A stretch of DNA of 64,000 nucleotides from Yuukianura sp. NJ FZ-2021 (lineage: Eukaryota), in the NCBI GenBank assembly GCA_046563655.1, contig JAJCTO010000010.1:930001-994000 (forward strand), in the 5' to 3' direction. The notes below the pieces were generated by a model. It was not told where the DNA came from. It was given only the letters and a program-made list of their open reading frames with translations, and made no database searches. Position numbers and translations under genes: made by a program. How positions within the stretch are numbered: position 1 is the stretch's first letter; every line of letters begins with the position of its first letter. Below are positions 6,182-49,642 of the stretch, piece after piece.

Positions 6182-6319
6182 GATGCTGTGTGATGATACA
6201 CTTGTAAGTGGAAAAGAGTTAGACTAAAGCGAAATTGATAAACGTAGCGTAAATTATGAACATGCACACCGTAAAGGTAACTACTAGTAAAAACTAAAAC
6301 TAAAAGTTTTATGGCCAAC

Positions 6320-12621: not shown

Positions 12622-12800
12622 AATCCACCCAGAACCATAAGAAATCGGTAATATTATCGCTTACCCTCAAGAGGACTTACTGTTGAGCACTCCTGTGAGT
12701 GGTGATCGTGTATCGGTGGAGATGGGCACTGCGCTGCGGAGTTGGATGAGTCCGAACTGGTAATGATGATGAGTTGTTGCCCGAGAGGGAAGAAGTGGAC

Positions 12801-17410: not shown

Positions 17411-20400
17411 GGTGTGGCTGCTGTAGAAAGTTAAAACTCGGTCAGAATAAAAAAGTGTAGGAGAATGTGGGAGTCTACATCATAAAGTAAAACGCAAAGG
17501 AATTCGGAGTGTCGATCATGTTACACGATGGTGTGACATGGACGGAGAAAAATGAGCATTATATGTGAGACTACTATATTTCTTGTGTGTTTCCCATTAC
17601 AGGATGGACAGAAACTCGGGTTGGAACTCTACCTGGCGGTCGATCCTGCGCTGATGATAGAGATGTGAAAGAATGCTAGCATGATGTCTAAACAACGTCC
17701 AGAGTGTGACTTTAATAAGTAAGTTGGGGTGGTGAGAGGGAAGGTTTAGTATGGGGCCGTGTTGGAGAAAAGGTCAACTGCAGACAGGCTTTGTAATAAT
17801 AGTTTGTGGTCTGTTATAGATTACCCTGGGAAGACGGATAGCTAAGGTCAAGCGGACCTCGCGACCCGTGTCGTAATGGTAGAAATGATGGGGAAATTGC
17901 GAAGGACTGTTAATAAATTGGAAGAAGGAAACAAGAGCGATAACCAAAACCGCCTCGGTGCCATGGCCGGATGCCTTAGAAGTACTGAAATATATATGCT
18001 AGCACTGAGTCAAGACGGCTACAATGTATTGTTCAAGGTCTATAGATATCAACGAGAATAGAAAGCTGACTAGCGTTTAAGCCTCGCCTTGACCTCGGGA
18101 TTTGTTGAGACGAGAGAAAATAGAATAGTAAGTGAAAAGTAAACATGGGGAGAAAGATGGTGAAAGTACTGCAAAATGCATTGAAATAATAAAATAGTGA
18201 CTGCAGTCCTATGCCCTTCGATTCACACTTCGAAGGACGGCAGCAGGAATGTACAGGAAGAGGGACATTCGCGTAAGCGGATTTTCCAGCATACGTCAAT
18301 AGTGATGGTTGAATGTATTGTGGATAAAACTTACTTGCGTTGGTGGTTATGTGTACTGTTAATTGTGAAACTCCCCAAGTGGATAGAATTAGCTAATCGG
18401 ATCGGGTTACGGACTGATGGAAGTTAAGGCAGAGACAGATGCACGAAGCTAAGACTATGCTCAACTAATCCACTCCTGCGCTGCGGAGGCCATTATAATT
18501 ACGTTTGATGGACGCACAGCGACTCGACATGGGGAAGGAGATGGAGGAATAAAGGGAGGGTGGTTTGTTTTGTATAATGTGCGAAAATTAGGCATCGACC
18601 CTGTGTTTGGGTGAGAAGGAGCGTGACGACTGAATGGGAAATTCCCACATCCAAGTTAACGAGGACAAGGGCAGCAGCTTTTTACATTGTTTTCGTGATG
18701 GTCTATGTTTGGCGTGGTGTGGCCAAAATCTGAAAAACCAGTGGACACGCACGCCCTCCGCAATATAAAAGTGTCTATGAATATGCATTTTCGCTAAATT
18801 CACATGGACCGAGCGAAGCCGTGTCCATAAATGCGGAAATGAAGTTGTGCGATGTAACTACAAAGAAAACCTTCCAGATGACCTTGTGAATGAAAGAGGG
18901 GGACAAAAAATTGTTTGCAAAACAATGTAAGAATGAGCACAAGGAAATTATGTGCCAAGGTGAGCGTGTGCGCGCATGAGTAAAATTTGGCGTTATATCC
19001 CAATGAACTTGGGTGTTGTTGTGTCCAAAACCAGTTTTTGTGTCATGGTGGTGCCAAGTCACGCCATTGTTATTCTTCCGTCTGGGCTTGACCAAGGGAA
19101 CATGAGACAAGGTCGACGAGAATTACACTTCCTGGATCCATCAAGTAGTTGGATCTTTGTTGAAGACAAGGACACAAAAAATATGCGCAAAAAGAAAAAG
19201 AACCAACCGCTCAATTCTTCCTGGTTCTGGTGTCAATGGATACGCCAAACTGGACTATTTAAGCTGGGAGCAATGCATCTATGGAGTTTCTGTTGTCCTT
19301 ACAACTGACCATCTGCGGCAGCCATCAGATCTAGGTTCGGTACTTAACCTGGTCTAACCTAACACTTGTTCTGTGGTACGCCCTGTGTCTTGTTCAACAA
19401 AACAAAAAGCAACCCGAGGTAAGCAATTATACCCGCAAGAGAAAAAAAAATAACGTTCGTAGTGGGATAAAACAAGAGAAACACGTATTGAACCACATTC
19501 CGTAGACTGATTCGTGCGGTGAAAGTGAAACGAATCAAAGAATTAGGAAGCAAAGACAAGTAACAGAAATTAGAGTGCCGCAGCAAGGTTTGTAAAGAAG
19601 AAAATAGTTTCCCCTTCAACAGGTTAGGCAATAACTCAAGAGTTTTAATCTTTATTTCGAAATTAGCAAAACTTGGGTCATCGAGCCTTTCTATGGTAAG
19701 GATTTATATACAAGCAAATAGGATGGGAGGGAAATCAGAATTAAAAAAAAAAAAAAAATTGTTTGGACCGACTTTTCTCGTACACAGGACTTATGGCCAA
19801 ACCTATTAAAGCATGTCGTCGCCATAGAAACCTTGCTGTCGCAGTGTGTTAGTAAAAAGCGGAGAAAAGCTGAGTGAGTTGAATATGGGCCTATAATTAA
19901 TTTGTAGGACTAGGTGGCTCCGCTACCTTTTGTAGAACAATTTCTGATAACTACTGAAGATTAGGCATGTTTTAGAGTCAGGAGAAAGGTTTAAGATCAA
20001 CGTAGGTAGTCACCTAGAGCCTTCACATGTACGGGAGAGTATGGCATGACTTTGAAAGCGTTTAACCCTTTGAAAAGGTACAACGGATTTAAGAAAGTGA
20101 GGTATGAATTATCATTGTTGTGTAAGTTTCAGCGTGGGAAGCTGAAAGTTTGTTGATCCGTTGGGATCCACGCAGCCGCGTGTCGCAGAGTGTGATGCCA
20201 TTAATTATATTTCTAAATCCACTCACAAGGTCCATGTTTGTACTTGTATCAGCATCCCCAGAATTGAAAAAAGAGGGGGGTTTATGATTTTTTATGAAGG
20301 CAAGTGGAGTTATGTTGGAATTTCCCGTCTTCCTATTCAATCAAAGTGTGGAAACCATTCCTGTTGCAGTAAGGTTAGATTATCGTGCTTGTGCTAGCTT

Positions 20401-25312: not shown

Positions 25313-25315
25313 TTA

Positions 25316-25696
25316 TGTGACCTCTCATCCTGGGTGAACCAGGACTCAGGCCGCATACGTCGCCGCGTAACAGACGGACTACTGGCTGCTTGACCTCTGT
25401 GCCCAGGTCCGAACCCCACCGAGGTGGCGCAGGTCCTGGGTGCCAGCTCTACGGATCATGGCCGCAGAATATGGCTCAATGCCATCACAAAGGAAACAGT
25501 AAACGAAGGGAACGTGTGGCTACTCTCCTTTATTGCTTGTAGAATCTCCCTACTCCAGTAACTGGACGTCACCGTGACAGGCGCTGGGAAGAGGAGCTAT
25601 CTCGAGGACAACTCCTCCTCAACCGAGCGCTCTCTACTCACTGACTGACCATCGGGATATGACTGAGAACCTAGCCTCATCCCGAGTGCCGTCACA
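25316..25696 (-). repeat. Long terminal repeat (381 bp), 5' LTR of a minus-strand element
   Basis: 6-bp inverted termini TGTGAC...GTCACA; AATAAA at 25534-25529; immediately followed by the PBS. Confidence 0.8.
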
Positions 25697-26065
25697 CACC
25701 CCTGCTTGGAGACGAAGTGAGGAACCCCGCCCGGTGGGGTTACTCACACTAAAACCTGATAAAAAAGTTCAACATTAGTTCATAAGTGCACTGAATTTCA
25801 CTAAATGCGGAAGACAGAATAGTAGATGTTCAACCTTTAAGATTTCAAAGATTTTAACTGAAATTATCAGAGACGTAATCAGTTGTCTTAAGCCATGCGC
25901 ATGAAGATGTGGTAGTATTCCGGATGGGAATGTTTGACATGTCACTGTAGTTTAACTGAAAATAACTATCTTAATCCCAAGCTCACAAGGAAGTTAACCT
26001 AATTAGCAATTAGTAAGAAGAATCAAAAACTTTAGTAAATGAGTTAGGAACTCTATTACGTTTAG

Positions 26066-26474: not shown

Positions 26475-27278
26475 ATGTCATTGAACGGCCTCCACAACCT
26501 GCCAGCTGGATTCATAGACGCAGTTCGAGAAAGAAATCAACCAAATCAGCGGTACGAGAGAGCGAAGTTTCTCGCCTCGAGGAGTGTAATCGAGTTGAGT
26601 CTCCTCAAAGACTGTTTTCCCGAACTAAAGGAACTGATAGACAGTTTGGTCAAGACTACTAAGCTCGCCTGGAAACCACTGATCAACAAGCTAGAAATCT
26701 GGATTTGGGAAGATCCACGCTCTACTTATAGGTACCAGCTGACTCACTGCAGACACGAGCTAATCTACAGATTCGCCCAGATTAGAATCGATCGATTCCC
26801 GCTAACTCTCGTGTCATTCGTCCGACACTGTGAAGGAATACTTGATCTTGGGATCAAGACAGACGAGTTCCTGCGACTTGGCTTACAGGAAAAGCTAGAA
26901 CTAACTCACTTCACCACCATACACATCACCCGTCAGCCAGGAGCTCCACTAACTGATTTTCGGACCGACAGTCTGATATTAGCTGTAACTCGACGACCCT
27001 ACCGACCATACTGCTTCCGAGACTTGGCCGACATCCTTCACTGCAACAGCGGACGGAGGGAAGAAGTAAAGTACTTCTTCAGTCTTTACGAAACGGAGAA
27101 AATCATTTACTGGAGTACGCTGTCTGAACGCCAAGTCCAACGCCGAGAAAAGACAAAGGAGACTCAGGAACGCAGAGGGTTGAGTACAGACGACCAGCTC
27201 ATCGACGAAATTTGTATCGCAGGCGACGCTTACGCCGAGACTTGCGACGACTACTTGGAGTCAGATAAGGAAAACTAG
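26475..27278 (+). CDS. Cassette copy 1, gene A: unknown protein, possibly degenerate F-box family
   Basis: 267 aa; close paralog of 31120-31923; weak similarity to the 21235 protein (FPLTLVSFVRH..ILDLGI vs SPMTFLSIVMY.SRFDLSI). Confidence 0.8.
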   Translation: MSLNGLHNLPAGFIDAVRERNQPNQRYERAKFLASRSVIELSLLKDCFPELKELIDSLVKTTKLAWKPLINKLEIWIWEDPRSTYRYQLTHCRHELIYRFAQIRIDRFPLTLVSFVRHCEGILDLGIKTDEFLRLGLQEKLELTHFTTIHITRQPGAPLTDFRTDSLILAVTRRPYRPYCFRDLADILHCNSGRREEVKYFFSLYETEKIIYWSTLSERQVQRREKTKETQERRGLSTDDQLIDEICIAGDAYAETCDDYLESDKEN

Positions 27279-27301
27279 TTTCATTTCATTTTCCTTTCAT
27301 A

Positions 27302-28213
27302 ATGGCTTACTTTGAGCCCATAGAGTTCACTTTACACTCTCCTGACGCCAAGGCACCTCACTGGGGGGAAGCCCATGAGGCTGGCCTTACTATTTACACT
27401 TCTGCGGATTATGACATTTCGCCAGGGGACCGTTGTGTTGTTTCTACCGGAATCGCCTTGCGTATTCCGTTAGGACTTTTCGGAAGAATAACTTCCATTT
27501 ACAGACATACGCTTAGCCATGGAATAACCGTTGCCCCAGAGGTCATGGAAGGGGGTACAATATCAGGCATTTGCAAAATAACGATTTTCAATCATGGCAA
27601 GAAATCTTTCCATCTAAGAAAGGGTGATGCAATTGCGCAGGTCACGTGTGAAAAATTCTACAAACCGGAGATCAAAGACAAACCCTTAGGGTTTCACTAC
27701 CACGCTGAGGACGATGACAAATGGCATATTAACTATCAAGCAAATGAGGGTCTTAGTAACATGTTAGGGAATCGGGACGACTTAAGTCGCTTTATCCGAA
27801 TCATCCCTTTTTCAAAGGAGGTTCGAGAACGAATCGGATTTCAAAAGTTGGAAATGTGGGCAAATCCAGGTCCTAAGAAAGACCTTCATGACCTTTTAGA
27901 AGAGATCAGTGATTGTGGAAGTACAAGACCCATTCAAGTCGCGATAAAAGCTTCTTTCTTCGTTCAACTCGATGTTGAAGATATACGGCGCGTAGGAACA
28001 AGGTTTCAATATTGTCCACCATACTTTTCTGACATGTACCCTGGAAATATTTGCGTGGATTTAAATGGGTTCTTTCCGAGAAAAGGCTTCGCCTTTCTAT
28101 TAGGACAGTTGAGCAGAATCCCTAAAGAAAAAGTTCCCGAGGAACTTATAAAAAGAGTTATTAAATTGGCAGATTCGGCTCCTGAGGACCGCGAAGGATG
28201 GGTAGATTATTAA
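27302..28213 (+). CDS. Cassette copy 1, gene B: pseudo-dUTPase fused to an unknown C-terminal domain
   Basis: dUTPase scaffold (AGLTIY, VSTGIALRIP.GLFGRI, IFNHG, KGDAIAQ), but the catalytic residues of motifs 1-3 are replaced and motif 5 is absent. Confidence 0.85.
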   Translation: MAYFEPIEFTLHSPDAKAPHWGEAHEAGLTIYTSADYDISPGDRCVVSTGIALRIPLGLFGRITSIYRHTLSHGITVAPEVMEGGTISGICKITIFNHGKKSFHLRKGDAIAQVTCEKFYKPEIKDKPLGFHYHAEDDDKWHINYQANEGLSNMLGNRDDLSRFIRIIPFSKEVRERIGFQKLEMWANPGPKKDLHDLLEEISDCGSTRPIQVAIKASFFVQLDVEDIRRVGTRFQYCPPYFSDMYPGNICVDLNGFFPRKGFAFLLGQLSRIPKEKVPEELIKRVIKLADSAPEDREGWVDY

Positions 28214-28374: not shown

Positions 28375-29802
28375 ATGGCGACATCCAGCAGTGTCTATTA
28401 CGAAAAACGACAAGCCTTGAATGCCACTGAAGATTTTCCCGAAAAGAGCGACCATGCAGAACGCCTTGCTGCAGTAAATGAGGGAAAGCTGACACAGAGA
28501 CTACTTCAGTTTCGAGCTCCAGAAAAAGAATCTGGCTGGAGACACACCACTGTCAGTGACGATGGAGCAGCCGCTTGGTTGATTCGTCAAGCCATGTCCC
28601 AAGACCTCGTTTTCGTGAGCTGCCGAGAAAATCCGAATACGTATTTGGGAGAAACCGTGACTATACTCATTCTAACATGCATCACCGGCTTTGTTCTCAA
28701 CGTGCGACATCTAACCGACAAATCCATCCTCGTGCTTCGAACATTGCTCGAGAGCCCAACCATTCCAAAGGTGGCCTACGACTGCACATCACAATCTATC
28801 ATGCTGAGAAGAGACTTGAATATTTTTCCCGTTGGCTTTCTGGATTTAGCAAAACTCTTTCGTACAGGCGTCACGACTGAGGACACCTTCCCGGGACTTT
28901 GCCAAAAATTCATTGCCACAAGATTTCGGAAAACATTCAACTACGAGTTGCCGAACTCCGCATGCTATCATCCCACCGAACACGCTCATGTTAAAATTCT
29001 TCAGGACCACGTTGTTGCCATCATGCAGTTGTGGAACGGAGTTGCCAGCGAGATCCGAGCAAACTTCCAGGCTACTCGCGGAGTAATTTTGCGAAAGCTG
29101 ATTCAGGACGCTAACGAAACGTTGGTGCTGCCAATTCCAACTCCGAAATTCCGGCAACACATCACCATCCGTTCCCAACATGAAGAATTGCTCTATGAAG
29201 TCATCAGCTTCCTAGCACAACAGTTTGACCTCTCGTTGCGATACTTTGAGGAATTCTATGAAAATTGTGGCCTCGAGAACAATGACAAATTACGTCAACA
29301 GTTCCAGTGGAAAGTGGACGAACTTGTAATACCACCTGGAGCCAAATTCGACAAAACAAAAATAATGGAAAGAGTAACCCGCATGTTAGATCACGATCTG
29401 TCACGTCGGCCAGGGGAACCCAGTTACGCCACTCTGTCTGCCCAATCACTCATTACATGGACATCATTAGAGGAACTCAGCAAAGAAGCAGAATCAGAAC
29501 ACAATGAACTGATGTCGACGAAGCCCAGTGACCACCAAGGACATCGCTGGCCAGGACATTCTCAACACCGAGAAAGAAATCGGAACCATGTCACCCCTTA
29601 TCAGAGGACCCAGGATGATTCCCGAGCTCGCATCTCTGCACTGGAACATCAGGTCCAAACACTTCAAACCCAGGTCAAAGGTCTCCAGGAAACAGTCCAA
29701 CGACTCTCGGACAATCAACCACGCTGGCCAGCCACCAACAACACAAACTCCCATGGTCAGCCAAACAAGCCATACCCTGACGAAATTTTTAACTTCTTTT
29801 AA
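28375..29802 (+). CDS. Cassette copy 1, gene C: inactive DEDDy 3'-5' exonuclease-like (EXD1/Egalitarian/Mut-7 family) with C-terminal coiled coil
   Basis: LRTLLESPTIPKVAYDC...LRRDLNIFPVGFLDL matches the family signature. ExoI reads VSCRE instead of xDxE. Heptad repeat RISALEHQVQTLQTQVKGLQETVQRL. Confidence 0.78.
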   Translation: MATSSSVYYEKRQALNATEDFPEKSDHAERLAAVNEGKLTQRLLQFRAPEKESGWRHTTVSDDGAAAWLIRQAMSQDLVFVSCRENPNTYLGETVTILILTCITGFVLNVRHLTDKSILVLRTLLESPTIPKVAYDCTSQSIMLRRDLNIFPVGFLDLAKLFRTGVTTEDTFPGLCQKFIATRFRKTFNYELPNSACYHPTEHAHVKILQDHVVAIMQLWNGVASEIRANFQATRGVILRKLIQDANETLVLPIPTPKFRQHITIRSQHEELLYEVISFLAQQFDLSLRYFEEFYENCGLENNDKLRQQFQWKVDELVIPPGAKFDKTKIMERVTRMLDHDLSRRPGEPSYATLSAQSLITWTSLEELSKEAESEHNELMSTKPSDHQGHRWPGHSQHRERNRNHVTPYQRTQDDSRARISALEHQVQTLQTQVKGLQETVQRLSDNQPRWPATNNTNSHGQPNKPYPDEIFNFF

Positions 29803-30037: not shown

Positions 30038-30643
30038 TGTAACGCCGGATTTCGAGCCACCCGGAGACTTTGAGATCTCCCGGTGGGCCGAAACCGGACG
30101 ATTGTAAAATAAACATTAGTTTTAATAGAACAAGTAGGAAAGCAAAGACTCAGCTTCTTTTCCTCTTTCTTAAGAGGATCAAGTGTCAAAGATTTATGAC
30201 AATTGATCTTTGACATGACGGATCAGTGGGAGGGCAAGCAACAAAGTTGCTTGTTTAACAAGTTTTTCACTTGTTAGACATGTGAATGTCAACTCATCAA
30301 AAGTTGACATTCATACAAAGTGCCCAGATAATCAACTTGCATAGTCCCACAACTTAGTTCAATCTTGGACTTTAATGACAGAACAGGATCATAGATCCTG
30401 GTCATTAACGTCCAACTATGAACTCAGGTCGCTAAGCGTCCCTCGGTTGAAGGACAAGCTGGGTCAAGAGTAAGGTTATAAATATAAGTAACAACTTGTT
30501 AGCGTTAAGTCATTTCTAGATTAGCTTCTGGCCAAGTACTCTCTCTCTCCAACTTAAGGTCTAAGGTCGAAACACTAAGTCTTTTGCAAATAAACACTGT
30601 TCTTGGGAAGATCTTTCGTCATTCTTCAACTCCACGTCTCACA
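30038..30643 (+). repeat. Putative 3' LTR of a plus-strand element (right end uncertain)
   Basis: Starts TGTAAC after the PPT; TATAAATA at 30477; AATAAA at 30589; candidate end GTCTCACA at 30643. No PBS follows and no second copy is in the window. Confidence 0.6.
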
Positions 30644-31119
30644 GCTAAACGCATCTCCACGGCTTCATCTCCACAGCTCACGCATCTGCCACTGCCGCTT
30701 TCACCGATCCGACTGTAGCTGACAGAGGTAAGGGAATCTTCCCTTCTTATATAGGTTCGAGAGTTAGTTAGACATCCACTTTTCAAGCGTCATTTAAGGT
30801 GGGTCCGGTGGGACCGGCCCCACCTAGATAGAAGGCAAGGTAGAGAATGAGACTGCGGCGTGGTTCACTTTGAGGTCATACATCCAAATGAGTCCCAGGG
30901 GACCCAGAAGGGTCAAGTTTCAGGTCAGGAGGGGTGGGGCGGGTGTTAGACCCGCCATTTTGATTGTTTTCAGAGAACAATCAAAGGGAAGCGTTAATGT
31001 TAGATTAGCGAAACATGCACATCAATTTTCACCCTGTTTCAGAACTATTGATTAATTTTAGCCGAAATAAAGTCAGGTACTCTTGACATAATTAACGTTC
31101 ATTGCAGACCTTTTGTCAA

Positions 31120-31923
31120 ATGACCGGAAACAACCCAACCAACATTTCCACTGAATTTTTGGACGCCATTCGTGAACGAAACCTCCCACACCAACGCTAC
31201 GAGAGAGCGAGATTCCTTGCCTCAAGAAGTGTAATAGAATTAAGCATTCTCAGGGACGCAATACCCGAATTGACCGAACTAATAGACAGCCTCGTTAAAA
31301 CCACTAGACAATCATGGAAACCATTGATCAATAAGTTAGAAATTTGGATCTGGGAAGATCCCCGTACGACGTACAGATATCAACTATCCCATTGTAGACA
31401 CGAACTAATTTACAGATTCGCCCAGATACGGATTGACCGATTCCCGTTAACCTTGGCGACACTCGTCCGACATTTAGCGGGTACACTTGACCTAGGCATC
31501 AAGACTGACGAATTTCTTAAACTTGGGCTTCAAGAAAAACTTGACCTAACTCACTTCACAACGATACATATCACACGACGGCCAGGAGCCCCATTAACTG
31601 ACTTCACGACACAAAGTTTAATACTTGCGGTAACCAGATGTCCTTATCGACCATACTGTTTCCGTGACGTGGCTGACATCCTACACTGTAACGGAGGACT
31701 CCGAGAAGAAGTCAAGTACTTCTTCCGTCTGTACGAGACCGAGAAATTCATTTATTGGAGCACACTCTCCGAACGACAAGTTCAACGACGAGAACACACA
31801 AAGAAGAACCAGGAACGTAGAGGACTCAGTACCGACGAACAATTGATTGACGAGATCTGTATTGCGGGAGACGCCTACGCTGAGAGTTGCGACGATTACC
31901 TTGCGTCAGATAAGGAAAACTAG
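31120..31923 (+). CDS. Cassette copy 2, gene A
   Basis: Paralog of 26475-27278 with long identical peptide blocks; ATG at 31120 after the acceptor TTCATTGCAG. Confidence 0.82.
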   Translation: MTGNNPTNISTEFLDAIRERNLPHQRYERARFLASRSVIELSILRDAIPELTELIDSLVKTTRQSWKPLINKLEIWIWEDPRTTYRYQLSHCRHELIYRFAQIRIDRFPLTLATLVRHLAGTLDLGIKTDEFLKLGLQEKLDLTHFTTIHITRRPGAPLTDFTTQSLILAVTRCPYRPYCFRDVADILHCNGGLREEVKYFFRLYETEKFIYWSTLSERQVQRREHTKKNQERRGLSTDEQLIDEICIAGDAYAESCDDYLASDKEN

Positions 31924-31956
31924 AATTCTCTTATTTTTAAATTTTAGTATTTTTCA

Positions 31957-32865
31957 ATGGCATACTTTGAGCCGATAGAGTTTAACTTACTTTCACCTAA
32001 CGCTAAAGCACCCAATTGGGGCGAAGCCCATGAGGCAGGACTAACGTTATATACTTCACTAGATTACGTCATACCTCCAAGGGAACGTCGCGTCGTCCAT
32101 ACGGACGTCATCATACGCATCCCTTTGGGACTTTACGGCAGGGTCACTGCTCTGTACAATCACACTTACAGCCACGGGATTGTAGCATCCCATGATCAGA
32201 TTGACGGTGGCACATTTACAAGTCTAAAGATAATTGTTTTTAACCATGGAGATATTGCATTTCAACTAAACAAAGGTGATGCATTTGCCAAGCTCATCTG
32301 TGAGAGATTTTACAAACCCGAACTAAAAGCGTCACCTACCTATTTTCCAAATCAGCCAGGAAATAATGCAGAATGGCCAAATATAGAACATGTCAATCTT
32401 GAGGGTAGCCCCCCATTAGGAAACCGAGATGATCTAAGCAAATTTATCAGGATTATCCCTTCTTCTAAAGAAGTACGTGACCGAATCGGTTTTCAGAAGC
32501 TGGAAATGTGGGCTAACCCAGGACAAAAGAACGATTTGCACGACCTATTAGAGGAAATTAGCGATTGTGGTGACATCAGACCAGTTCAGGTTGCAATTAA
32601 AACGTCTTACTTTTTAACGTTAGATGTCGAAGATATCCGTAGAGTTGGAATCAGATACCAATATTGCCCTCCGTATTTTAGTACCATGTATCCAGGATAC
32701 ATTTGTGTAGATCTAAACGGGCCTTCCCCACGAAAGGGTTTTTCATTTCTTCTGGGACAATTATACAGAATCACTAAAGAAAAAGTCCCTAACGAGCTTA
32801 TTTCTAGAATAATAGGGCTCACAGAAACAGCCCCAGTAGACCGTGAAGGTTGGATAGATTACTAG
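31957..32865 (+). CDS. Cassette copy 2, gene B: pseudo-dUTPase fusion
   Basis: Paralog of 27302-28213; both start MAYFEPIEF and end REGWxDY. Confidence 0.85.
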   Translation: MAYFEPIEFNLLSPNAKAPNWGEAHEAGLTLYTSLDYVIPPRERRVVHTDVIIRIPLGLYGRVTALYNHTYSHGIVASHDQIDGGTFTSLKIIVFNHGDIAFQLNKGDAFAKLICERFYKPELKASPTYFPNQPGNNAEWPNIEHVNLEGSPPLGNRDDLSKFIRIIPSSKEVRDRIGFQKLEMWANPGQKNDLHDLLEEISDCGDIRPVQVAIKTSYFLTLDVEDIRRVGIRYQYCPPYFSTMYPGYICVDLNGPSPRKGFSFLLGQLYRITKEKVPNELISRIIGLTETAPVDREGWIDY

Positions 32866-33046
32866 CAACTCACTTACATAAAATAATATTTAGGTATTCG
32901 GGACTGGGTAGTCTATTAAATATTTTCTTTTCCCTAAAATAATATAATCAGATTGAGTTATAACTACATACTAGAGTAAGGGTTGAGGAATTACAAATTA
33001 TATTGGAAATTTTTAATTTTTGCTTTATTCACAATTTGTTAAGACA

Positions 33047-33255
33047 ATGGCAGCATCCGATGCAAAAGCACCCATCCACGTGAAATATTGCGAAAAGAGG
33101 CAATTGCTCAATGCCACAACAAGCTTCCCTGAGACGAGCGAATACGCTGAACAGTTAGAATCTGTAAATTACGGGAAGCTCTTAACTAAGCTGCTGCAGT
33201 TCCGTTCCGAAGGAAAGGTCCCCGAATGGAAACAGGACGCCGTGTCGAACGAATG
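33047..33255 (+). pseudogene. Cassette copy 2, gene C: 5' fragment, truncated
   Basis: YCEKRQLLNATTSFPE...LLQFRS...W aligns with the N-terminus of the 28375 protein. Homology stops at the LINE junction. Confidence 0.8.
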
Positions 33256-33258
33256 TAC

Positions 33259-35238
33259 TATCATAATGGAGAACAGGAACGGACCCAGTACTGAGCCTTG
33301 AGGAACTGATAAAATGGTTTCTCTGGATTGTGACGTCTCACCATTTACCCGTACACTTTGAGATCTGTCGTTCAAATATGATTCAAACCACGAAGATGAA
33401 ACGTTGTACCATCGCAGTTTTTCACAAAGAATGCCCTTGTTTACAGTGTCGAAAGCTTTCTTTAAATCCATTGAAATAACCATACACAAATCACCGCGAT
33501 TTAGATGGCTATAAATTAGTTCGGTGAGGGCTATTTGTGCCATTGTGGTAGAATGATGATCACGAAACCCAAATTGTGCACTACTGAGTAAACTGTGGCG
33601 ATTGAAGAATAATTTTAGCTGATTGAGGGCGAACTTTTCACATAATTTCGCAATTACTGGTTGTAGAGAAATTGGGCGTGTTTCGTTTGGATGTGATGGT
33701 TTGGGTACTTTAGGTAGCGGTATTACTGATGAATGTTTGAGACATTTAGGGAAAGTTCCACTTCTCAGCGTTTTGTTGATAAGGTAGATGATCTGTTTTT
33801 CAATATTAGGTGATCCAAATCAGTGTGCTAATATCCAGTTTGACATTCCAAAATTATCTTTGCTTTTGCTATTTTTGTTTTTTAGATTCTTCCAAGTTTG
33901 CTTGAACATTGAACTGGTTACGTCGGAGAAACTAAACTGATCAGCGGGTGTGATGATGAGATCTGGTTTCGTTGGTAGAAGAGTAGAAACAAATTGTGGT
34001 GTGGTAATTGATGTGAAATAGTCATTAATTTCGTCTGCTGAGAACTGCAGAACTTGACTTTTTGAATTTGCAGTTGAACGAATCTTTGCAATCGCTTTGA
34101 ATGGGCCAAGCTTTTTTATATCAAGGTTGAGTGCGTCTCTCCTGTCTTGAGCGATTTTTAATTTCAATGACTTCGTAAGTTTTCTCAGATGTGCATGCTG
34201 GACCTGGGACAGCGGTTTCATACTTTCTAACTTTCTTCTTTCTGTCATAAGCATTTTAGTGTGATCAGAAAGTACGAGTGGTAGTGGTCGCGGAACGAAG
34301 GAAACATTACGTACTTTAACTGTAGATTCAAAATTAGAATTGATTTTTGACATGGACGCAGTGAAGAGAGAGTCAAGATCATCTGTTTCTGAATTGTCAA
34401 ATGTTGTATAGATTGATTTCAATCCAAATTCTTCAAAATCAAAGTTGTTGTAGTCGTGGTATTGGAATGTCGTTTTTTTGACTTTTGGTTTTGACAGATT
34501 CACAGACACCGATGTAACACTGTGATCAGAAATGGACGGATCAAAGATCTTAACATCAAGTACAAGATCCGGATTATTGCAGAAAATTAAATCCAGAACA
34601 GAGTCACCACGGGTCGGAAGTTTAACTAATTGTTTGAAGATAGCATTAAGGTGTTTCACTCCGTGTTTACATCTCTGAGGAATGTAAGTAGGGTTAAGGT
34701 TAAAGTCACCAAGCACAAACGAAGCATTCTTGATAATATTAAGTTCACTAAACAGTTTCACAATAGTGTCAAGGTCACAGTCAATGATTGCATGGTTGTA
34801 GTTTGGGATTCTGTAGACACTGCTGATTAATATAGATTTGTTGTAGTTTAATTGAATTTTTGCTGTGATCACTTCCATGTTCTTGTTTTCGGGTAATTCA
34901 ATGTTTTTTACGTTAAATTTTAAAGATGATCGTAGGAGGATTCCGACTCCTCCTTTTCCTTGCCAGTCACGATCTTTATGAAGAAAGTCATAGCCATCGA
35001 TAGGCCTTGGTGGGTTGTTTTCTTTCAAATGAGTTTCGGTGATGCACAGAACGTCAAACTGATACATGTCAAGTAGTATTTTTATTAAGTCAGCTTTTGA
35101 ATTGAAGCCACAGACATTTAAGGCTGCTATATTGAGTCGATTTTTTAAAATACAAGGAGAATTGATGTTTGTACTGCTTGCAAGTCGGTTTCTGCATTGA
35201 TTGACGCGATCTCGACCGGAGTAATCAAGTTTTGATAG
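33259..35238 (-). pseudogene. LINE ORF2 (AP endonuclease + partial RT) with one in-frame TGA at 33820-33822
   Basis: Motifs LNVCG, CITETHL, GGVGI, VYRIP, GDFN, LDLIF, ISDH; after the TGA the same frame gives RPISL, QFGFR, DLKKAFDTV, VPQGSVLGP. Confidence 0.9.
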
Positions 35239-35991
35239 TCAGATTGGAGAACGGGGTGTAATACTGCTACGTCCAAACCCTGAAGTTCGAGCAACGGAAG
35301 CGAAAGTTGGAGCTTGAGAGGTAGTAGTATTCATGTGAACGTTGCCAGTATTTTGCATACGGTATTTGATTGCTAGTTTTTGTCGTGTACTGAAAGGGAG
35401 GTCTTGTGTGATTTTGATGCCCGGGTGTGCAATTTTGATTTTATCACGATTCTTCCAGATCATGTTTCTAGCTTCAAGCGATTTAAAGATAATTTTGACA
35501 GGTTTGTTTGGATTTTGAGGGGTTGATTTGCCAAGTCTAAATGCTTCAGAGACAAGAGTCGAATTGGTAATTTGGAGACTATTGGAGAAGATCGTTTCGA
35601 GTCCGGAAAGAAGTGATTCTGTAGTTTCGTTCGTGTACCGTTGAAGTCCATGCAACACGAGGTTAGTCTTGTTAATGGCGATTTGAAGCTTTTCAATTTC
35701 TGAGTCATGGGTTTGAACGTTTTGAATTATGTACTTCTGCTCATTTTCAGTTGCTTGAACTCTTTCCTTGATTGAGGTAACTTCTGATGTAAGCGACTGT
35801 AATTGCTGTGAAAGTTCAACATGATTGGTTTTGACTTGGTCACTAAGATCTTTGATTTGATCTTTGATTGTAGTCAGGATTGAGGCAATGTCAGTGTCGC
35901 CCATCTTCAGTGCTTTTTGAGTGTTGGTTTCAGAGTTAGTAATAGCTTTACGTTTTGTTCCTCTGGTATTTGGTTTCTCCAAAGAAGTCAT
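35239..35991 (-). CDS. LINE ORF1 (coiled coil + RRM-like)
   Basis: Heptad region followed by NLVLHGL, AFRLGK, PVKIIF, ITQDLP. Confidence 0.85.
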   Translation of the reverse strand: MTSLEKPNTRGTKRKAITNSETNTQKALKMGDTDIASILTTIKDQIKDLSDQVKTNHVELSQQLQSLTSEVTSIKERVQATENEQKYIIQNVQTHDSEIEKLQIAINKTNLVLHGLQRYTNETTESLLSGLETIFSNSLQITNSTLVSEAFRLGKSTPQNPNKPVKIIFKSLEARNMIWKNRDKIKIAHPGIKITQDLPFSTRQKLAIKYRMQNTGNVHMNTTTSQAPTFASVARTSGFGRSSITPRSPI

Positions 35992-36321
35992 CGGTTCATC
36001 ATCAGGAAGTAAACTAGATAAATACCAGAACTGTGCCAGTATCTTTTGATTTCAATGTGGATGATTATGACCTTCGGGTCACTACAAATACTAATGTAAG
36101 ACGGAACTTACTTATAGTCGTTTGCACGGTGCCATGAGTTAAATCGTAGTCAGCTGATTGTTGATGATGATGAACGCGCAATTAACGTCCGTCGTTTGGT
36201 AAGTATCGCTTGCTTTACCGTGGAGGCTGAATGTCACACTTGAAATATTTCTATGAAAATTTGTGTCGTTGTACTTTATAAGAGTTTGTCGGTTGTCAAC
36301 TCCACAGTAAAAAATGCTTTC

Positions 36322-39300
36322 CATGCTTTCCTTTAATGCTTTAAGCGAGATAATTTGCAAAAATTATTTGTTGCTGATAAGCTGTCATTGATACGTTGCT
36401 ATAAGTTTGAGTAAGCGCCACACGGCGTTTAACACCCCTGGTAACGTTTTCCATACCTCAGCTTTGCGTTTAAGAAAAATATCGCAAAATAGGAATAAGA
36501 ACGCTGCTAGTCAGAAGCGTTATTACTCAGTTTCCTTTGAGCGCCTTCTCATTCCTATAATGCGACATTTTTTTTAAATGCAAAGCAGAGGTAGGTAAAA
36601 TGTTACCAGGGCGATTAAACGCCGTGTGGCGTTTCCTCAAACTTATAGCAACGTATTAGTTACAGCTTAGTAGCAACAAATAGTTTATAGAAATTATCTC
36701 GCATAAAAATATTAAAGGAAAAAATGTCTGCCGTATCGCCTTCTGATTCTTCTCCTGCGATATTCACCTTAAACGCCAAGTTGAGGTATTAAAAGTATTA
36801 TAAAGGATTTTAAACGCCAAATGGCGTTTAATTGACCTGGTAAAACTTTATATGCTGTTGAAGTCTCAGCTTTGCGTTGAAGGAAAATGTCGCAAAATAG
36901 GAATAAGAACGCTGCTAGTCAGAAGAGTTTTTATCAGTTTTCTTTGAGCGCCTTCTGATTCCTATATTGCGAAAAATTTTTTAAACGCAAAGCTGAGTTA
37001 TGTAAAATGTTACCAGGGCGATTAAACGCCGTGTGGCGTTTACTCAAACTTATAGCAACGTATGAATGACAGCTTAGTAGCAACAAATAGTTTATAGAAA
37101 TTATCACGCATAAAAATATTAAAGGATAAAATGTCCGACGTATCGTCTTCTGATTCTTCGCCTGCGATATTCACCTTAAACGCCAAGTTGAGGTAATAAA
37201 AGTATTACCAAGGATTTTAAACGCCAAATGGCGTTTAATTGACCTGGTAAAACTTTATATGCTGTTGAAGTCTCAGATTTGCGTTGAAGGAAAATATCGC
37301 AAAATAGGAATAAGAACGCTGCTAGTCAGAAGAGTTTTTATCAGTTTTCTTTGAGCGCTTTCTGATTCCTATAATGCGACATTTTTTTTAAATGCAAAGC
37401 AGAGGTAGGTAAAATGTTACCAGGTCGATTAAACGCCGCGTTGCGTTTCCTCAAACTTATAGCAACGTATTAGTTACAGCTTAGTAGCAACAAATAGTTT
37501 ATAGAAATTATCTCGCATAAAAATATTAAAGGAAAAAATGTCTGCCGTATCGCCTTCTGATTCTTCTCCTGCGATATTCACCTTAAACGCCAAGTTGAGG
37601 TATTAAAAGTATTATAAAGGATTTTAAACGCCAAATGGCGTTTAATTGACCTGGTAAAACTTTATATGCTGTTGAAGTCTCAGCTTTGCGTTGAAGGAAA
37701 ATATCGCAATATAGAAATGAGAAGGCGAGACGTCAGACATGCTTTCCTTTAATGCTTGTAAGCGAGATAATTTGCAAAAATTATTTGTTGCTTATAAGCT
37801 GTCATTAATACGTTGCTATAAGTTTGAGTAAGCGCCACACGGCGTTTAACACCTCTGGTAACGTTTTCCGTATCTCAGCTTTGCGTTTAAGAAAAATATC
37901 GCAAAATAGGAATAAGAACGCTGCTAGTCAGAAGAGTTTTTATCAGTTTTCTTTGAGCGCCTTCTGATTCCTATAATGCGACATTTTTTTTAAATGCAAA
38001 GCAGAGGTAGGTAAAATGTTACCAGGGCGATTAAACGCCGTGTGGCGTTTCCTCAAACTTATAGCAACGTATTAGTTACAGCTTAGTAGCAACAAATAGT
38101 TTATAGAAATTATCACGCATAAAAATATTAAAGAAAAACATGTCTGACGTCTCGCCTTCTGATCCTTACTCTGTGATATTTTCCTTAAACGCCAAGTTGA
38201 GGTATTAAAGGTATTACCAAGGATATTAAACGCCAAATGGCGTTTAATTGACCTGGTAAAAGTTTATATGCTGTTGAAATCTCAGCTTTGCGTTGAAGGA
38301 AAATATCGCAAAATAGGAATAAGAACGCTGCTAGTCAGAAGAGTTTTTATCAGTTTTCTTTGAGCGCCTTCTGATTCCTATATTGCGAAAATTCTTTTAA
38401 ACGCAAAGCTGAGTTATGTAAAATGTTACCAGGGCGATTAAACGGCGTGTGGCGTTTACTCAAACTTATAGCAACGTATGAATGACAGCTTAGTAGCAAC
38501 AAATAGTTTATAGAAATCTCACGCATAAAAATATTAAAGAAAAACATGTCTGACGTCTCGCCTTCTGATTCTTCTCCTGCGATATTCACCTTAAACGCCA
38601 AGTTGAGGTATTAAAAGTATTACCAAGGATATTAAACGCCAAATGGCGTTTAATTGACCTGGTAAAACTTTATATGCTGTTGAAGTCTCAGCTTTGCGTT
38701 GAAGGAAAATATCGCGATATAGAAATGAGAAGGCGAGACGTCAGACATGCTTTCCTTATAAGCTGTCATTAATACGTTGCTATAAGTTTGAATAAGCGCC
38801 ACACGGCGTTTAATCCCCCTGGTAACATTTTATATACCTCAGCTTTGCGTTTAAGATAAATATCGCAGAATTGGAATAAGAAGGCTGCTATTCAGAAATG
38901 TTTTTATCAGTTTTCTTTGAGCGCCTTCTGATTCCTATAATGCGACATTTTTTTTAAATGCAAAGCAGAGGTAGGTAAAATGTTACCAGGGCGATTAAAC
39001 GCCGTGTGGCGTTTCCTCAAACTTATAGCAACGTATTAGTTACAGCTTAGTAGCAACAAATAGTTTATAGAAATTATCTCGCATAAAAATATTAAAGGAA
39101 AAAATGTCTGACGTATCGCCTTCTGATTCTTATCCTGCGATATTCACCATAAACGCCAAGTTGAGGTATTAAAAGTATTACCAAGGATATTAAACGCCAA
39201 ATGGCGTTTAATTGACCTGGTAAAACTTTATATGCTGTTGAAGTCTCAGCTTTGCGTTGAAGGAAAATATCGCGATATAGAAATGAGAAGGCGAGACGTC

Positions 39301-42147
39301 AGACATGCTTTCCTTATAAGCTGTCATTAATACGTTGCTATAAGTTTGAATAAGCGCCACACGGCGTTTAATCCCCCTGGTAACATTTTATATACCTCAG
39401 CTTTGCGTTTAAGATAAATATCGCAGAATTGGAATAAGAAGGCTGCTATTCAGAAATGTTTTTATCAGTTTTCTTTGAGCGCCTTCTGATTCCTATATTG
39501 CGAAAAATTTTTTAAACGCAAAGCTGAGTTATGTAAAATGTTACCAGGGCGATTAAACGCCGTGTGGCGTTTACTCAAACTTATAGCAACGTATTAGTTA
39601 CAGCTTAGTAGCAACAAATAGTTTATAGAAATTATCTCGCATAAAAATATTAAAGGAAAAAATGTCTGACGTATCGCCTTCTGATTCTTATCCTGCGATA
39701 TTCACCATAAACGCCAAGTTGAGGTATTAAAAGTATTACCAAGGATATTAAACGCCAAATGGCGTTTAATTGACCTGGTAAAACTTTATATGCTGTTGAA
39801 GTCTCAGCTTTGCGTTGAAGGAAAATATCGCGATATAGAAATGAGAAGGCGAGACGTCAGACATGCTTTCCTTATAAGCTGTCATTAATACGTTGCTATA
39901 AGTTTGAGTAAGCGCCACACGGCGTTTAACACCCCTGGTAACGTTTTCCATACCTCAGCTTTGCGTTTAAGAAAAATATCGCAAAATAGGAATAAGAAGG
40001 CTGCTAGTCAGAAATGTTTTTATCAGTTTTCTTTGAGCGCCTTCTGATTCCTATAATGCGACATTTTTTTTAAATGCAAAGCAGAGGTAGGTAAAATGTT
40101 ACCAGGGCGATTAAACGCCGTGTGGCGTTTCCTCAAACTTATAGCAACGTATTAGTTACAGCTCAGTAGCAACAAATAGTTTATAGAAATTATCTCGCAT
40201 AAAAATATTAAAGGAAAAAATGTCTGACGTATCGCCTTTTGATTCTTATCCTGCGATTTTCACCATAAACGCCAAGTTGAGGTATTAAAAGTATTACCAA
40301 GGATATTAAACGCCAAATGGCGTTTAATTGACCTGGTAAAACTTTATATGCTGTTGAAGTCTCAGCTTTGCGTTGAAGGAAAATATCGCAATATAGAAAT
40401 GAGAAGGCGAGACGTCAGACATGCTTTCCTTATAAGCTGTCATTAATACGTTGCTATAAGTTTGAGTAAGCGCCACACGGCGTTTAACACCCCTGGTAAC
40501 GTTTTCCATACCTCAGCTTTGCGTTTAAGAAAATATCGCAAAATAGGAATAAGAAGGCTGCTATTCAGAAATGTTTTTATCAGTTTTCTTTGAGCGCCTT
40601 CTGATTCCTATAATGCGACATTTTTTTTAAATGCAAAGCAGAGGTAGGTAAAATGTTACCAGGGCGATTAAACGCCGTGTGGCGTTTCCTCAAACTTATA
40701 GCAACGTATTAGTTACAGCTTAGTAGCAACAAATAGTTTATAGAAATTATCTCGCATAAAAATATTAAAGGAAAAAATGTCTGACGTATCGCCTTCTGAT
40801 TCTTATCCTGCGATATTCACCATAAACGCCAAGTTGAGGTATTAAAAGTATTACCAAGGATATTAAACGCCAAATGGCGTTTAATTGACCTGGTAAAACT
40901 TTATATGCTGTTGAAGTCTCAGCTTTGCGTTGAAGGAAAATATCGCGATATAGAAATGAGAAGGCGAGACGTCAGACATGCTTTCCTTATAAGCTGTCAT
41001 TAATACGTTGCTATAAGTTTGAGTAAGCGCCACACGGCGTTTAACACCCCTGGTAACGTTTTCCATACCTCAGCTTTGCGTTTAAGATAAATATCGCAGA
41101 ATTGGAATAAGAAGGCTGCTATTCAGAAATGTTTTTATCAGTTTTCTTTGAGCGCCTTCTGATTCCTATATTGCGACATTTTTTTTAAACGCAAAGCAGA
41201 GGTAGGTAAAATGTTACCAGGGCGATTAAACGCCGTGTGGCGTTTCCTCAAACTTATAGCAACGTATTAGTTACAGCTCAGTAGCAACAAATAGTTTATA
41301 GAAATTATCTCGCATAAAAATATTAAAGGAAAAAATGTCTGACGTATCGCCTTTTGATTCTTATCCTGCGATTTTCACCATAAACGCCAAGTTGAGGTAT
41401 TAAAAGTATTACCAAGGATATTAAACGCCAAATGGCGTTTAATTGACCTGGTAAAACTTTATATGCTGTTGAAGTCTCAGCTTTGCGTTGAAGGAAAATA
41501 TCGCAATATAGAAATGAGAAGGCGAGACGTCAGACATGCTTTCCTTATAAGCTGTCATTAATACGTTGCTATAAGTTTGAGAAAGCGCCACACGGCGTTT
41601 AATCCCCCTGGTAACATTTTATATACCTCAGCTTTGCGTTTAAGATAAATATCGCAGAATTGGAATAAGAAGGCTGCTATTCAGAAATGTTTTTATCAGT
41701 TTTCTTTGAGCGCCTTCTGATTCCTATAATGCGACATTTTTTTTAAATGCAAAGCAGAGGTAGGTAAAATGTTACCAGGGCGATTAAACGCCGTGTGGCG
41801 TTTCCTCAAACTTATAGCAACGTATTAGTTACAGCTTAGTAGCAACAAATAGTTTATAGAAATTATCTCGCATAAAAATATTAAAGGAAAAAATGTCTGA
41901 CGTATCGCCTTCTGATTCTTATCCTGCGATATTCACCATAAACGCCAAGTTGAGGTATTAAAAGTATTACCAAGGATATTAAACGCCAAATGGCGTTTAA
42001 TTGACCTGGTAAAACTTTATATGCTGTTGAAGTCTCAGCTTTGCGTTGAAGGAAAATATCGCAAAATAGGGATAAGAACGCTGCTAGTCAGAAGAGTTTT
42101 TATCAGTTTTCTTTGAGCGCCTTCTGATTCCTATAATGCGGTATTTT
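36322..42147. repeat. Satellite 1, block A: palindromic ~560-600 bp monomer
   Basis: Identical markers recur at 39766, 40324 and 40881 (558/557 bp). Each monomer consists of two imperfect inverted arms, and deletion variants are present. Confidence 0.95.
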
Positions 42148-48235: not shown

Positions 48236-49642
48236 AAAATATCGCAAAATAGGAATAAGAAGGCTGCTAGTCAGAAGAGTTTTTATCAGTTTTCTTTGAG
48301 CGCCTTCTGATTCCTATAATGCGACATTTTTTTTAAATGCAAAGCAGAGGTAGGTAAAATGTTACCAGGGCGATTAAACGCCGTGTGGCGTTTCCTCAAA
48401 CTTATAGCAACGTATTAGTTACAGCTTAGTAGCAACAAATAGTTTATAGAAATTATCTCGCATAAAAATATTAAAGGAAAAAATGTCTGACGTATCGCCT
48501 TCTGATTCTTATCCTGCGATATTCACCATAAACGCCAAGTTGAGGTATTAAAAGTATTACCAAGGATATTAAACGCCAAATGGCGTTTAATTGACCTGGT
48601 AAAACTTTATATGCTGTTGAAATCTCAGCTTTGCGTTGAAGGAAATTATCGCAAAATAGAAATGAGAAGGCGAGACGTCAGACATGCTTTCCTTTAATGC
48701 TTGTTAGCGAGATAATTTGCAAAAGTTATTTGTTGCTTATAAGCTGTCATTAATACGTTGCTATAAGTTTGAGTAAGCGCCACACGGCGTTTAACACCCC
48801 TGGTAACGTTTTCCATACCTCAGCTTTGCGTTTAAGAAAAATATCGCAAAATAGGAATAAGAACGCTGCTAGTCAGAAGAGTTTTTATCAGTTTTCTTTG
48901 AGCGCCTTCTGATTCCTATAATGCGACATTTTTTTAAATGCAAAGCAGAGGTAGGTAAAATGTTATCAGGGCGATTAAACGCCGTGTGGCGTTTCCTCAA
49001 ACTTATAGCAACGTATTAGTTACAGCTTAGTAGCAACAAATAGTTTATAGAAATTATCTCGCATAAAAATGTTAAAGGAAAAAATGTCTGACGTATCGCC
49101 TTCTGATTCTTATCCTGCGATATTCACCATAAACGCCAAGTTGAGGTATTAAAAGTATTACCAAGGATATTAAACGCCAAATGGCGTTTAATTGACCTGG
49201 TAAAAGTTTATATGCTGTTGAAATCTCAGCTTTGCGTTGAAGGAAATTATCGCAAAATAGAAATGAGAAGGCGAGACGTCAGACATGCTTTCCTTTAATG
49301 CTTGTAAGCGAGATAATTTGCAAAAATCATTTGTTGCTGATAAGCTGTCATTGATACGTTGCTATAAGTTTGAGTAAGCGCCACACGGCGTTTAACACCC
49401 CTGGTAACGTTTTCCATACCTCAGCTTTGCGTTTAAGAAAAATATCGCAAAATAGGAATAAGAACGCTGCTAGTCAGAAGAGTTTTTATCAGTGTTCTTT
49501 GAGCGCCTTCTGATTCCTATAATGCGACATTTTTTTTAAATGCAAAGCAGAGGTAGGTAAAATGTCACCAGGGCGATTAAACGCCGTGTGGCGCTTCCTC
49601 AAACTTATAGCAACGTATTAGTTACAGCTTAGTAGCAACAAA

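Follow-up and report, generated by a model that had tools for sequence, protein, structure and literature searches.

The stretch of DNA considered here, referred to below as the window, comprises 64,000 nucleotides from Yuukianura sp. NJ FZ-2021 (GenBank assembly GCA_046563655.1, contig JAJCTO010000010.1, positions 930,001 to 994,000, forward strand). Its central feature is an open reading frame (ORF) that reads from an ATG at 28375 to a stop at 29802 without an intron and encodes a 475-residue protein of the DEDDy exonuclease type, here called the pseudonuclease, which is the last gene of a Ty3/gypsy element of ~17.35 kb flanked by long terminal repeats (LTRs). The first-pass annotation had described an element-encoded, catalytically dead EXD1/Egalitarian-like DEDDy protein, with its ExoI and ExoII acidic residues lost and a C-terminal coiled coil, lying just upstream of a polypurine tract (PPT) and LTR. 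The results below bear out that description, apart from the family label: the protein is very probably a captured Rrp6/EXOSC10-type core, consisting of an N-terminal extension, the EXO domain and a domain at the HRDC position, without PMC2NT and the catalytic residues and with a C-terminal coiled coil, carried as the last gene of an env-bearing Ty3/gypsy lineage.

The gene within its element

The element has the order LTR, primer site, matrixin metalloprotease, gag, pol (protease, reverse transcriptase (RT), RNase H as well as integrase), env, ORF267, a dUTPase-like fusion, the pseudonuclease, PPT and LTR (Table 1). Its size of ~17.35 kb excludes a nested insertion; a second copy, on contig C5, measures 17,356 bp with LTRs that are 95.7% identical. 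The stop codon of the pseudonuclease lies 235 bp from the 3' LTR, which is preceded by an imperfect PPT. The primer site agrees without mismatch with the 3' end of a host tRNA-Gln(CTG) gene (L120:1500-1572, minus strand), which was located with a degenerate pattern; the primer-site 15-mer also occurs at 8 other places, 2 of them primer sites of studied copies. The gene preceding the accessory cassette is presumably env, from its signal peptide, RQKR site and C-terminal hydrophobic stretch; its first 362 residues have no Pfam match. There is an in-frame stop in env of the window copy and a short protease frame in the C5 copy.

Fold and family assignment

Alone, the window protein matches PF01612 weakly (E 0.033, Pfam); across its family the domain is found in 11 of 12 members at E ≤ 1, the best value being 7e-8. 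A profile of the dead family retrieves 13 Rrp6/EXOSC10 sequences (E 7e-14 to 3e-12), then a trypanosome RNase D (2e-7), Egalitarian (Egl, 0.005) and EXD2 (0.23), such that Rrp6/EXOSC10 stands ahead of Egl by ~11 orders of magnitude; EXD1 was not among the 20 matches listed at E ≤ 10, and a profile search with the single window protein listed only Rrp6, weakly. An EXO-only profile gives 45-62 bits for Rrp6, 24-50 for active element proteins (see below), up to 33 for RNase D, 4-27 for host EXD1/Egl-like domains and -1.3 for a host Mut-7-like row, the last two labels being assigned by motif resemblance, unlike that of host Rrp6.

An AlphaFold2 model, for which the input alignment was restricted to 12 rows of the dead family, has a mean predicted local distance difference test score (pLDDT) of 75 and a predicted template modelling score of 0.66. 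With this model, the top Foldseek match is human RRP6 (E 1.8e-11; Egl 1.4e-5, EXD1 5.7e-5). Rrp6 entries occupy ranks 1-11 in VIA-align, the best superposing residues 4-351 of the model on RRP6 183-588 over 320 residues (Z 24.4, root mean square deviation 4.1), as compared with Z values of 18.4 for Nibbler, 17.1 for Egl, 16.4 over 180 residues for EXD1 and 15.8 for WRN; even when confined to residues 21-256, i.e. to EXO, the alignment with an Rrp6 chain has a score above all of these (Z 20.3). The extension, EXO and HRDC-position domain superpose on the Rrp6/EXOSC10 core (PDB 3SAF, 4NLB, 2HBJ) over 311-323 residues, at 12-15% identity. Superpositions with Egl run to roughly Egl 746-776, with no consistent extension over residues 256-345, whereas RRP6 aligns through HRDC. 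Mut-7/Nibbler, EXD2 and WRN were rejected as closest EXO relatives on these scores.

The window ORF begins at the segment aligned to human RRP6 183. N16, within the N-terminal extension, is present in 7/8 dead rows and in 12/12 active element rows. No Pfam match to PMC2NT (PF08066), Lsm or LOTUS/OST-HTH was found in the window protein; because 50 residues precede the nuclease domain, there is no room for the Lsm domain of EXD1 or the LOTUS-like/BicD-binding region of Egl. The four-helix domain that follows EXO is putatively homologous to HRDC, in view of its position in the whole-chain superposition, the conservation of A281 and D285, and a profile-position test, itself partly circular, in which the expected site for the HRDC helix profile is among the top 3 of ~300-500 positions in 7 of 11 members and 8th in the window protein. 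Residues 346-407 are probably a disordered linker, judging from the model. In the predicted coiled coil beyond it (pLDDT 62-83 by block), 8 of 11 a/d positions are L, I or V in one register, and a three-heptad pattern is present in 8 of 12 aligned family members. A homodimer prediction for residues 1-450 scored 0.12.

It was profile, fold and domain content, and not the tree, that led us to reject the EXD1/Egl label of the first-pass annotation; Egl itself retains its DEDDy residues, according to the accessible text of a recent report (10.1101/2025.08.03.668247). In the phylogeny by which that annotation would have had its label checked, the dead proteins form one clade (10 rows, support 100/99), to which the trees assign no definite place. 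Because the label is not supported, the inferences drawn from it, of a decoy for the PIWI-interacting RNA (piRNA) pathway or a dynein adaptor, lose their basis.

Loss of the catalytic residues

Catalytic columns were taken from a 41-row alignment. All of its active element proteins (12), Rrp6 rows (5) and RNase D rows (6) read D, E, D, Y, D. In the window protein these columns are occupied by S82, R84, Q140, I208 and H212, ExoIII being lost alongside ExoI and ExoII. No dead row (0/10) has D or E in the ExoI column, and the ExoII column holds E in a single row (L012). E85 and D211 are each displaced by a single position from a catalytic column, the register being that of the alignment and not of the model coordinates; in either register the ExoI Asp and the ExoII Asp, both metal-binding, are lost. 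From these columns, the window protein is expected to be a catalytically dead DEDDy protein. Motifs of the Rrp6/RNase D type are retained elsewhere, namely Y90-x-G92, K132, R146-D147 and D157. R146-D147 is invariant in the dead (8/8) and Rrp6 (5/5) rows, and is absent from 7 host EXD1/Egl-like domains and from most active element proteins.

Distribution, selection and exchange

A genome search with the window protein gave 18 matches among 24 candidates scored, at 20-96% identity excluding self. The members inspected sit behind env or a dUTPase-like gene in like-built elements; in each subfamily that was looked at, the gene is the final one ahead of the PPT/LTR. At least five divergent subfamilies contain it as a long open frame, their proteins having 16-46% identity to that of the window. 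RTs of the dead-gene elements likewise form one clade (7 rows, 100/99), those of two subfamilies not having been recovered. Beyond this genome, 2 proteins were found when cluster representatives were scanned in full with HMMER, and 3 loci among 427 pattern matches in metagenomes; a word-indexed protein search with the dead alignment retained 0 of 8000 candidates at E ≤ 0.01, and 10 pattern matches in viral contigs included 0 relatives. The order ORF, dUTPase, pseudonuclease recurs on an environmental contig (L129).

The ratio of non-synonymous to synonymous substitution rates (dN/dS; Nei-Gojobori counting with Jukes-Cantor correction) between the window and C5 copies is 0.19, and 0.13 for residues 1-345 only (p 8e-10). 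Five other pairs with measurable dS give 0.09-0.19, and three further pairs are near or at saturation. By these counts, the pseudonuclease gene is under purifying selection. The elements L009 and L015 have 91.9% identity across 5.2 kb of pol-env, yet identity is 52% between the pseudonucleases that they encode, and L010 has an LTR stretch in common with L009 (95% identical) but does not share its pseudonuclease gene; pseudonuclease alleles have been swapped between near-identical element backbones.

Active element-borne relatives and host genes

PF01612 has 64 matches among 70 candidates in the genome, of which the top 30 and 13 more loci were examined. Twenty-four long active frames fall into at least ten gypsy subfamilies; they are intronless and lie mostly directly after integrase, with intact D-E-D-Y-D columns, a Pfam HRDC in 10/12, a zinc knuckle in 8/8 checked and dN/dS of 0.13-0.16. 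Dead and active element genes sit in different RT clades. The best EXO+HRDC tree joins the dead and active element proteins (79/67), which weakly suggests a common origin; the trees are compatible both with descent of the dead gene from an active element gene and with a second capture from the host.

Host Rrp6 is a separate gene (L097) with introns and PMC2NT (E 9e-9), and the possibility that the pseudonuclease is an ordinary host ortholog was rejected. Host EXD1/Egl-like genes likewise exist separately, with introns, and their domains form a clade of their own (100/100). As a separate observation, this host set is expanded (L089, L091, L095, L066-L068), some of its genes having two tandem nuclease domains and most having intact DEDDy columns.

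Discussion

The closest precedent is the DEDDy-exonuclease ORF3 of the LTR retrotransposons Juno and Vesta of bdelloid rotifers (PMC5408684), a domain shared with Athena/Terminon (PMC6431247), in that here also a DEDDy-type nuclease is a 3' accessory ORF of a Ty3/gypsy-type element. In the accessible part of the rotifer report, those ORFs retain the invariant residues, replace env and are described with no coiled coils (PMC5408684). The window gene is, by contrast, dead, Rrp6-like, placed behind env and two accessory genes, and equipped with a heptad helix, differences that stand on descriptions and not on sequence comparison. Active DEDDy cargo in rotifer elements is known; a dead Rrp6-like form behind env appears to be new, in that the literature search turned up no publication describing such a gene within an LTR element, Repbase, Dfam and most subscription papers lying outside it.

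The active Rrp6-like ORF3 of other gypsy lineages in the same genome resembles the window gene in being element-borne, intronless and the last gene, in starting just before the extension, and in its dN/dS; it differs in having D-E-D-Y-D, a Pfam HRDC (10/12) and a zinc knuckle and in lying directly behind pol, the place of the dead gene being behind env in elements of a different RT clade. The window gene differs from cellular Rrp6/EXOSC10 in being intronless and element-borne, and its product in the changes at five catalytic columns. With EXD1 the protein shares an inactive DEDDy core, on our reading by convergence. EXD1, in the PIWI-EXD1-TDRD12 complex, is a host gene product with an N-terminal Lsm domain that binds TDRD12 and a dimerization hook, as far as the accessible text describes it (PMC4712191). 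In Egl, as apparently in the window protein, a DEDDy domain is followed by a small helical domain and used without catalysis. The available descriptions of Egl include three LOTUS-like domains, a BicD-binding N terminus and a Dlc motif (PMC13186709; 10.1101/2025.08.03.668247), whereas no LOTUS-like domain is seen in the window protein by Pfam or in the model. The element as a whole resembles the env-carrying Ty3/gypsy 'errantiviruses' of metazoans in its LTR-gag-pol-env order, tRNA primer site and 4-bp target duplication (PMC13524379), and differs from them in its 17 kb and its four extra genes, i.e. the matrixin metalloprotease, ORF267, the dUTPase-like gene and the pseudonuclease. The accessible text of that survey mentions no nuclease, peptidase or dUTPase cargo, and the survey excluded LTR pairs more than 14 kb apart (PMC13524379).

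Our leading guess is that the pseudonuclease has a decoy role directed at Rrp6 and the exosome, instead of at the piRNA pathway. As a shield or decoy with no catalysis of its own, it may counter the surveillance of element RNA by Rrp6/exosome, a reading that we put at a little under one half (about 0.45). We infer that the pseudonuclease would be made during element replication, would oligomerize through its coiled coil and would occupy either element RNA or a partner of the Rrp6 core, and that host Rrp6/exosome would thereby be kept from degrading element transcripts. As to its expression, a splice-acceptor-like signal before the start codon beats its shuffles at 5% in 1/8 copies, which is a lead only. 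In Drosophila, RRP6 is described as degrading transposon RNAs, the levels of which are raised by catalytically inactive RRP6 (PMC4577213, in the part available), and the inactive EXO core of Exd1 is described as binding single-stranded RNA (PMC4712191, likewise). By analogy to EXD1, a role for the pseudonuclease as an RNA adaptor is plausible. A bolder formulation, in which the protein would be a dominant-negative mimic of host Rrp6 and an element-encoded exosome antagonist in an animal, the allele swaps would resemble those of an arms race, and metalloprotease, pseudo-dUTPase and pseudonuclease would form a virus-like accessory cassette, seems to us rather unlikely.

Several observations weigh against the shield or decoy reading, with respect to both the ancestry and the function of the protein. 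The dead proteins are a long-branch clade in a polytomy with Rrp6 and the active element proteins; in approximately unbiased (AU) tests a single clade of dead and EXD1/Egl proteins was not rejected (p=0.46), as was also the case for dead plus cellular Rrp6 (p=0.30). In an ESM Atlas feature search the first rank went to an 'Exd1 homolog' cluster with a score of 0.83, which the notes of that resource treat as no more than a lead and which shuffled proteins attain one third of the time. Taken alone, the four-helix domain gave no match to HRDC by hhalign and none at E ≤ 0.001 by Foldseek, a wide VIA search with it reached at best Z 6.7, to unrelated helical bundles, with neither HRDC nor Egl among the 50 best, and in Egl, too, the nuclease is followed by a domain of four helices.

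As to function, the DW..RP motif after ExoII is present in 12/12 active element and 5/5 Rrp6 rows and in 1/8 dead rows. In the KxxHG motif, Y or F takes the place of the His in dead rows; because of these losses, binding of a 3' end in the canonical manner is doubtful. With 21 K+R versus 19 D+E, the EXO region is no more than mildly basic. PMC2NT is the domain that binds Rrp47/C1D. It is present in the host Rrp6 gene and absent from the window protein, in which no C-terminal exosome-binding tail was recognized either, that region being poorly conserved in Rrp6 (for the domain roles of PMC2NT and the exosome-binding region, we relied on the available part of PMC3928423). Because neither was recognized, likeness to full-length dominant-negative Rrp6 mutants cannot be assumed. 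In the one close pair compared, the window and C5 copies, constraint is not significant over residues 346-475 (dN/dS 0.59, p 0.48), the part that contains the coiled coil, and the mosaicism can arise by ordinary template switching in the absence of host conflict.

The strongest competitor, though in itself unlikely, is that the pseudonuclease is a helper of the replication cycle with no host target, which binds, protects or chaperones the element's own genomic RNA (its 3' end, or a dimer or packaging signal) in a ribonucleoprotein (RNP) or particle. The constant last position of the dead gene and the purifying selection on it would fit such a role, as would the replacement by a coiled coil of the zinc knuckle with which the active relatives end, a nucleocapsid-like RNA-binding module; Rodriguez et al. 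propose roles in 3'-end processing for the active versions (PMC5408684, in the part seen). A fixed self-RNA is, however, less readily reconciled than a changing partner with the 16-27% identity of the pseudonucleases across subfamily groups, the RTs of which are close. The exchange of alleles between near-identical backbones and the loss of the canonical RNA-end motif also argue against a simple helper.

A conflict between elements is improbable. The dead protein would in this case block the active Rrp6-like nucleases of other gypsy lineages or the RNAs that they trim, and the two kinds of gene do coexist in this genome, start at about the same point, share N16 and join in the best tree; the dead and active sets nonetheless lie in different RT clades, and the dead family retains a cellular-type R146-D147 that most active element proteins lack. 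Derivation from EXD1 or Egl, either as a piRNA-pathway decoy or as a BicD-dynein RNA transport adaptor, is in our judgement quite improbable. The combination of a dead DEDDy core, a helical C-terminal part and a coiled coil does recall Exd1, which is inactive and dimeric (PMC4712191), and the ExoHD-XAD module of Egl (PMC13186709), both as far as the available texts go, and the AU and ESM Atlas results above are compatible with it; against this, Rrp6 ranks far higher by profile and fold and aligns over residues 256-345, the host EXD1/Egl-like domains group in a separate clade, and there is neither an Lsm nor a LOTUS-like domain, through which EXD1 and Egl contact TDRD12 and BicD in the descriptions available (PMC4712191; 10.1101/2025.08.03.668247). 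That the gene is a non-functional passenger or a decayed pseudogene of an active nuclease, as the lost catalytic residues and the in-frame stops within or beside 3/18 genomic matches might suggest, is barely credible in view of its long open frames in at least five subfamilies, its dN/dS values, which an overlapping RNA element would not produce in that it would not favour synonymous over non-synonymous change, its confident predicted fold and the same substitutions throughout the dead clade.

To our knowledge, animal retroelements have not been found to carry many counter-defence genes. Surveillance by Rrp6 and the exosome is a documented brake on transposon RNA (PMC4577213, as available), and a conserved dead copy of the Rrp6 core is a concrete candidate for its antagonist. 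The presence of active and dead versions in one genome is a natural comparison for asking why retroelements carry DEDDy nucleases, a question raised in the accessible part of PMC5408684. Even if the pseudonuclease is only an RNP helper, it would still be an independent origin of a pseudonuclease, in parallel to EXD1 and Exuperantia.

Neighbouring features

Table 1. Features of the window and related loci. Positions are those of the window unless a label precedes them; G, C and L numbers are our labels for genome, contigs and loci.
Feature	Position	Strand	Remarks
Rrp6-like pseudonuclease ORF	28375..29802	+	475 aa; last gene of LTR element
N-terminal extension, residues 1-50	28375..28524	+	superposes on segment before Rrp6 EXO; helical/coil in model
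DEDDy exonuclease fold, residues 51-255	28525..29139	+	RNase H-like alpha/beta EXO (AlphaFold2 model, VIA-align)
Four-helix domain at HRDC position, residues 256-345	29140..29409	+	whole-chain superposition on RRP6 through 588
Linker, residues 346-407	29410..29595	+	low confidence, pLDDT <50 at 342-412
Heptad-repeat helix, residues 408-446	29596..29712	+	predicted coiled coil
Imperfect polypurine tract AAGTTGGGGAATAA	30024..30037	+	11/14 purines; abuts LTR; identical tract in C5 copy
3' LTR	30038..31041	+	1004 bp, TGT...TCA; 98.7% identical to 5' partner
Target-site duplication GAAC	31042..31045	+	4 bp
5' LTR partner	G000:C10:916132-917134		13 kb upstream of window start
Matrixin-type metalloprotease with hemopexin-like repeat	G000:C10:918921-920300 (L037/L038)		PF00413 E 2e-44; HExGHxxGxxH motif
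ORF267	26475..27278	+	first gene of conserved 3' accessory cassette; no Pfam match
dUTPase-like domain with fused domain lacking an assignment	27302..28213	+	PF00692 E 1.2e-13
Further ORF267 family members	L098:2328-4938, L098:7939-8877, L102:6178-6900, L129:41-910
Active Rrp6-like EXO-HRDC-zinc-knuckle ORFs	L040-L064, e.g. G000:C8:6336708, C9:432600, C5:659275
3' cassette of older related element	31096..33301	+	ORF267-like, dUTPase-like, N-terminal stub of second pseudonuclease
LTR of nested gypsy element	25315..25748	-	434 bp; 99.3% identical to G000:C10:928189-928622
Nested element gag	11014-12660	-	Pfam
Nested element pol	6320-11164	-	Pfam
Nested element gB-like env	3323-6223	-	Pfam

The ORF267 homologue of L129 lies in the same position (E 3e-15), and dN/dS of ORF267 is low. 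The ORF267 family, which has no Pfam match, is represented by one to several copies per element, three extra copies lying between pol and env in L098. The motifs of the dUTPase-like domain, which we compared with what we take to be the canonical ones, look degenerate in the window copy and two relatives and intact in L129; a degenerate dUTPase-like gene followed by the pseudonuclease would make two pseudo-enzymes in tandem. The metalloprotease lies between 5' LTR and gag in the element family, including in L101, L103 and L018, and our guess is that it helps particles to cross basement membranes.

The host element is split between env and ORF267 by a nested gypsy element of ~27.5 kb. The gag-pol visible within the window was rejected as the partner of the pseudonuclease, as it belongs to this nested element, on the other strand and with LTRs of its own. 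The host element was itself inserted into an older related element, the remaining cassette of which has 70.7% DNA identity to positions 26506-28212; the stub of its pseudonuclease matches query residues 8-64 and is ended by a long interspersed nuclear element (LINE), LINE-like frames lying at 33169-36051.

Among minor observations, a 598-aa frame (L004:1411-3204, G000:C10:1068461-1070254) fuses the gag N terminus of a gB-type element to a truncated pseudonuclease and is probably a by-product of nested insertion. The nested element of the window (597-25748 plus G000:C10:928189-930000) has two more glycoprotein-like frames, an F-box/LRR-like ORF at 15614-17479 and several plus-strand ORFs. At positions 36450-56000 the window contains an array in which a unit of 400-600 bp, itself bearing inverted repeats, occurs ~21 times; the array is interrupted by an intact-looking 1760-aa frame at 42344-47626, presumably of the BEL/Pao type. 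The size of the nested element, ~27.5 kb, is close to that of the largest LTR elements described, Burro being reported at more than 30 kb in the accessible text of PMC6431247.

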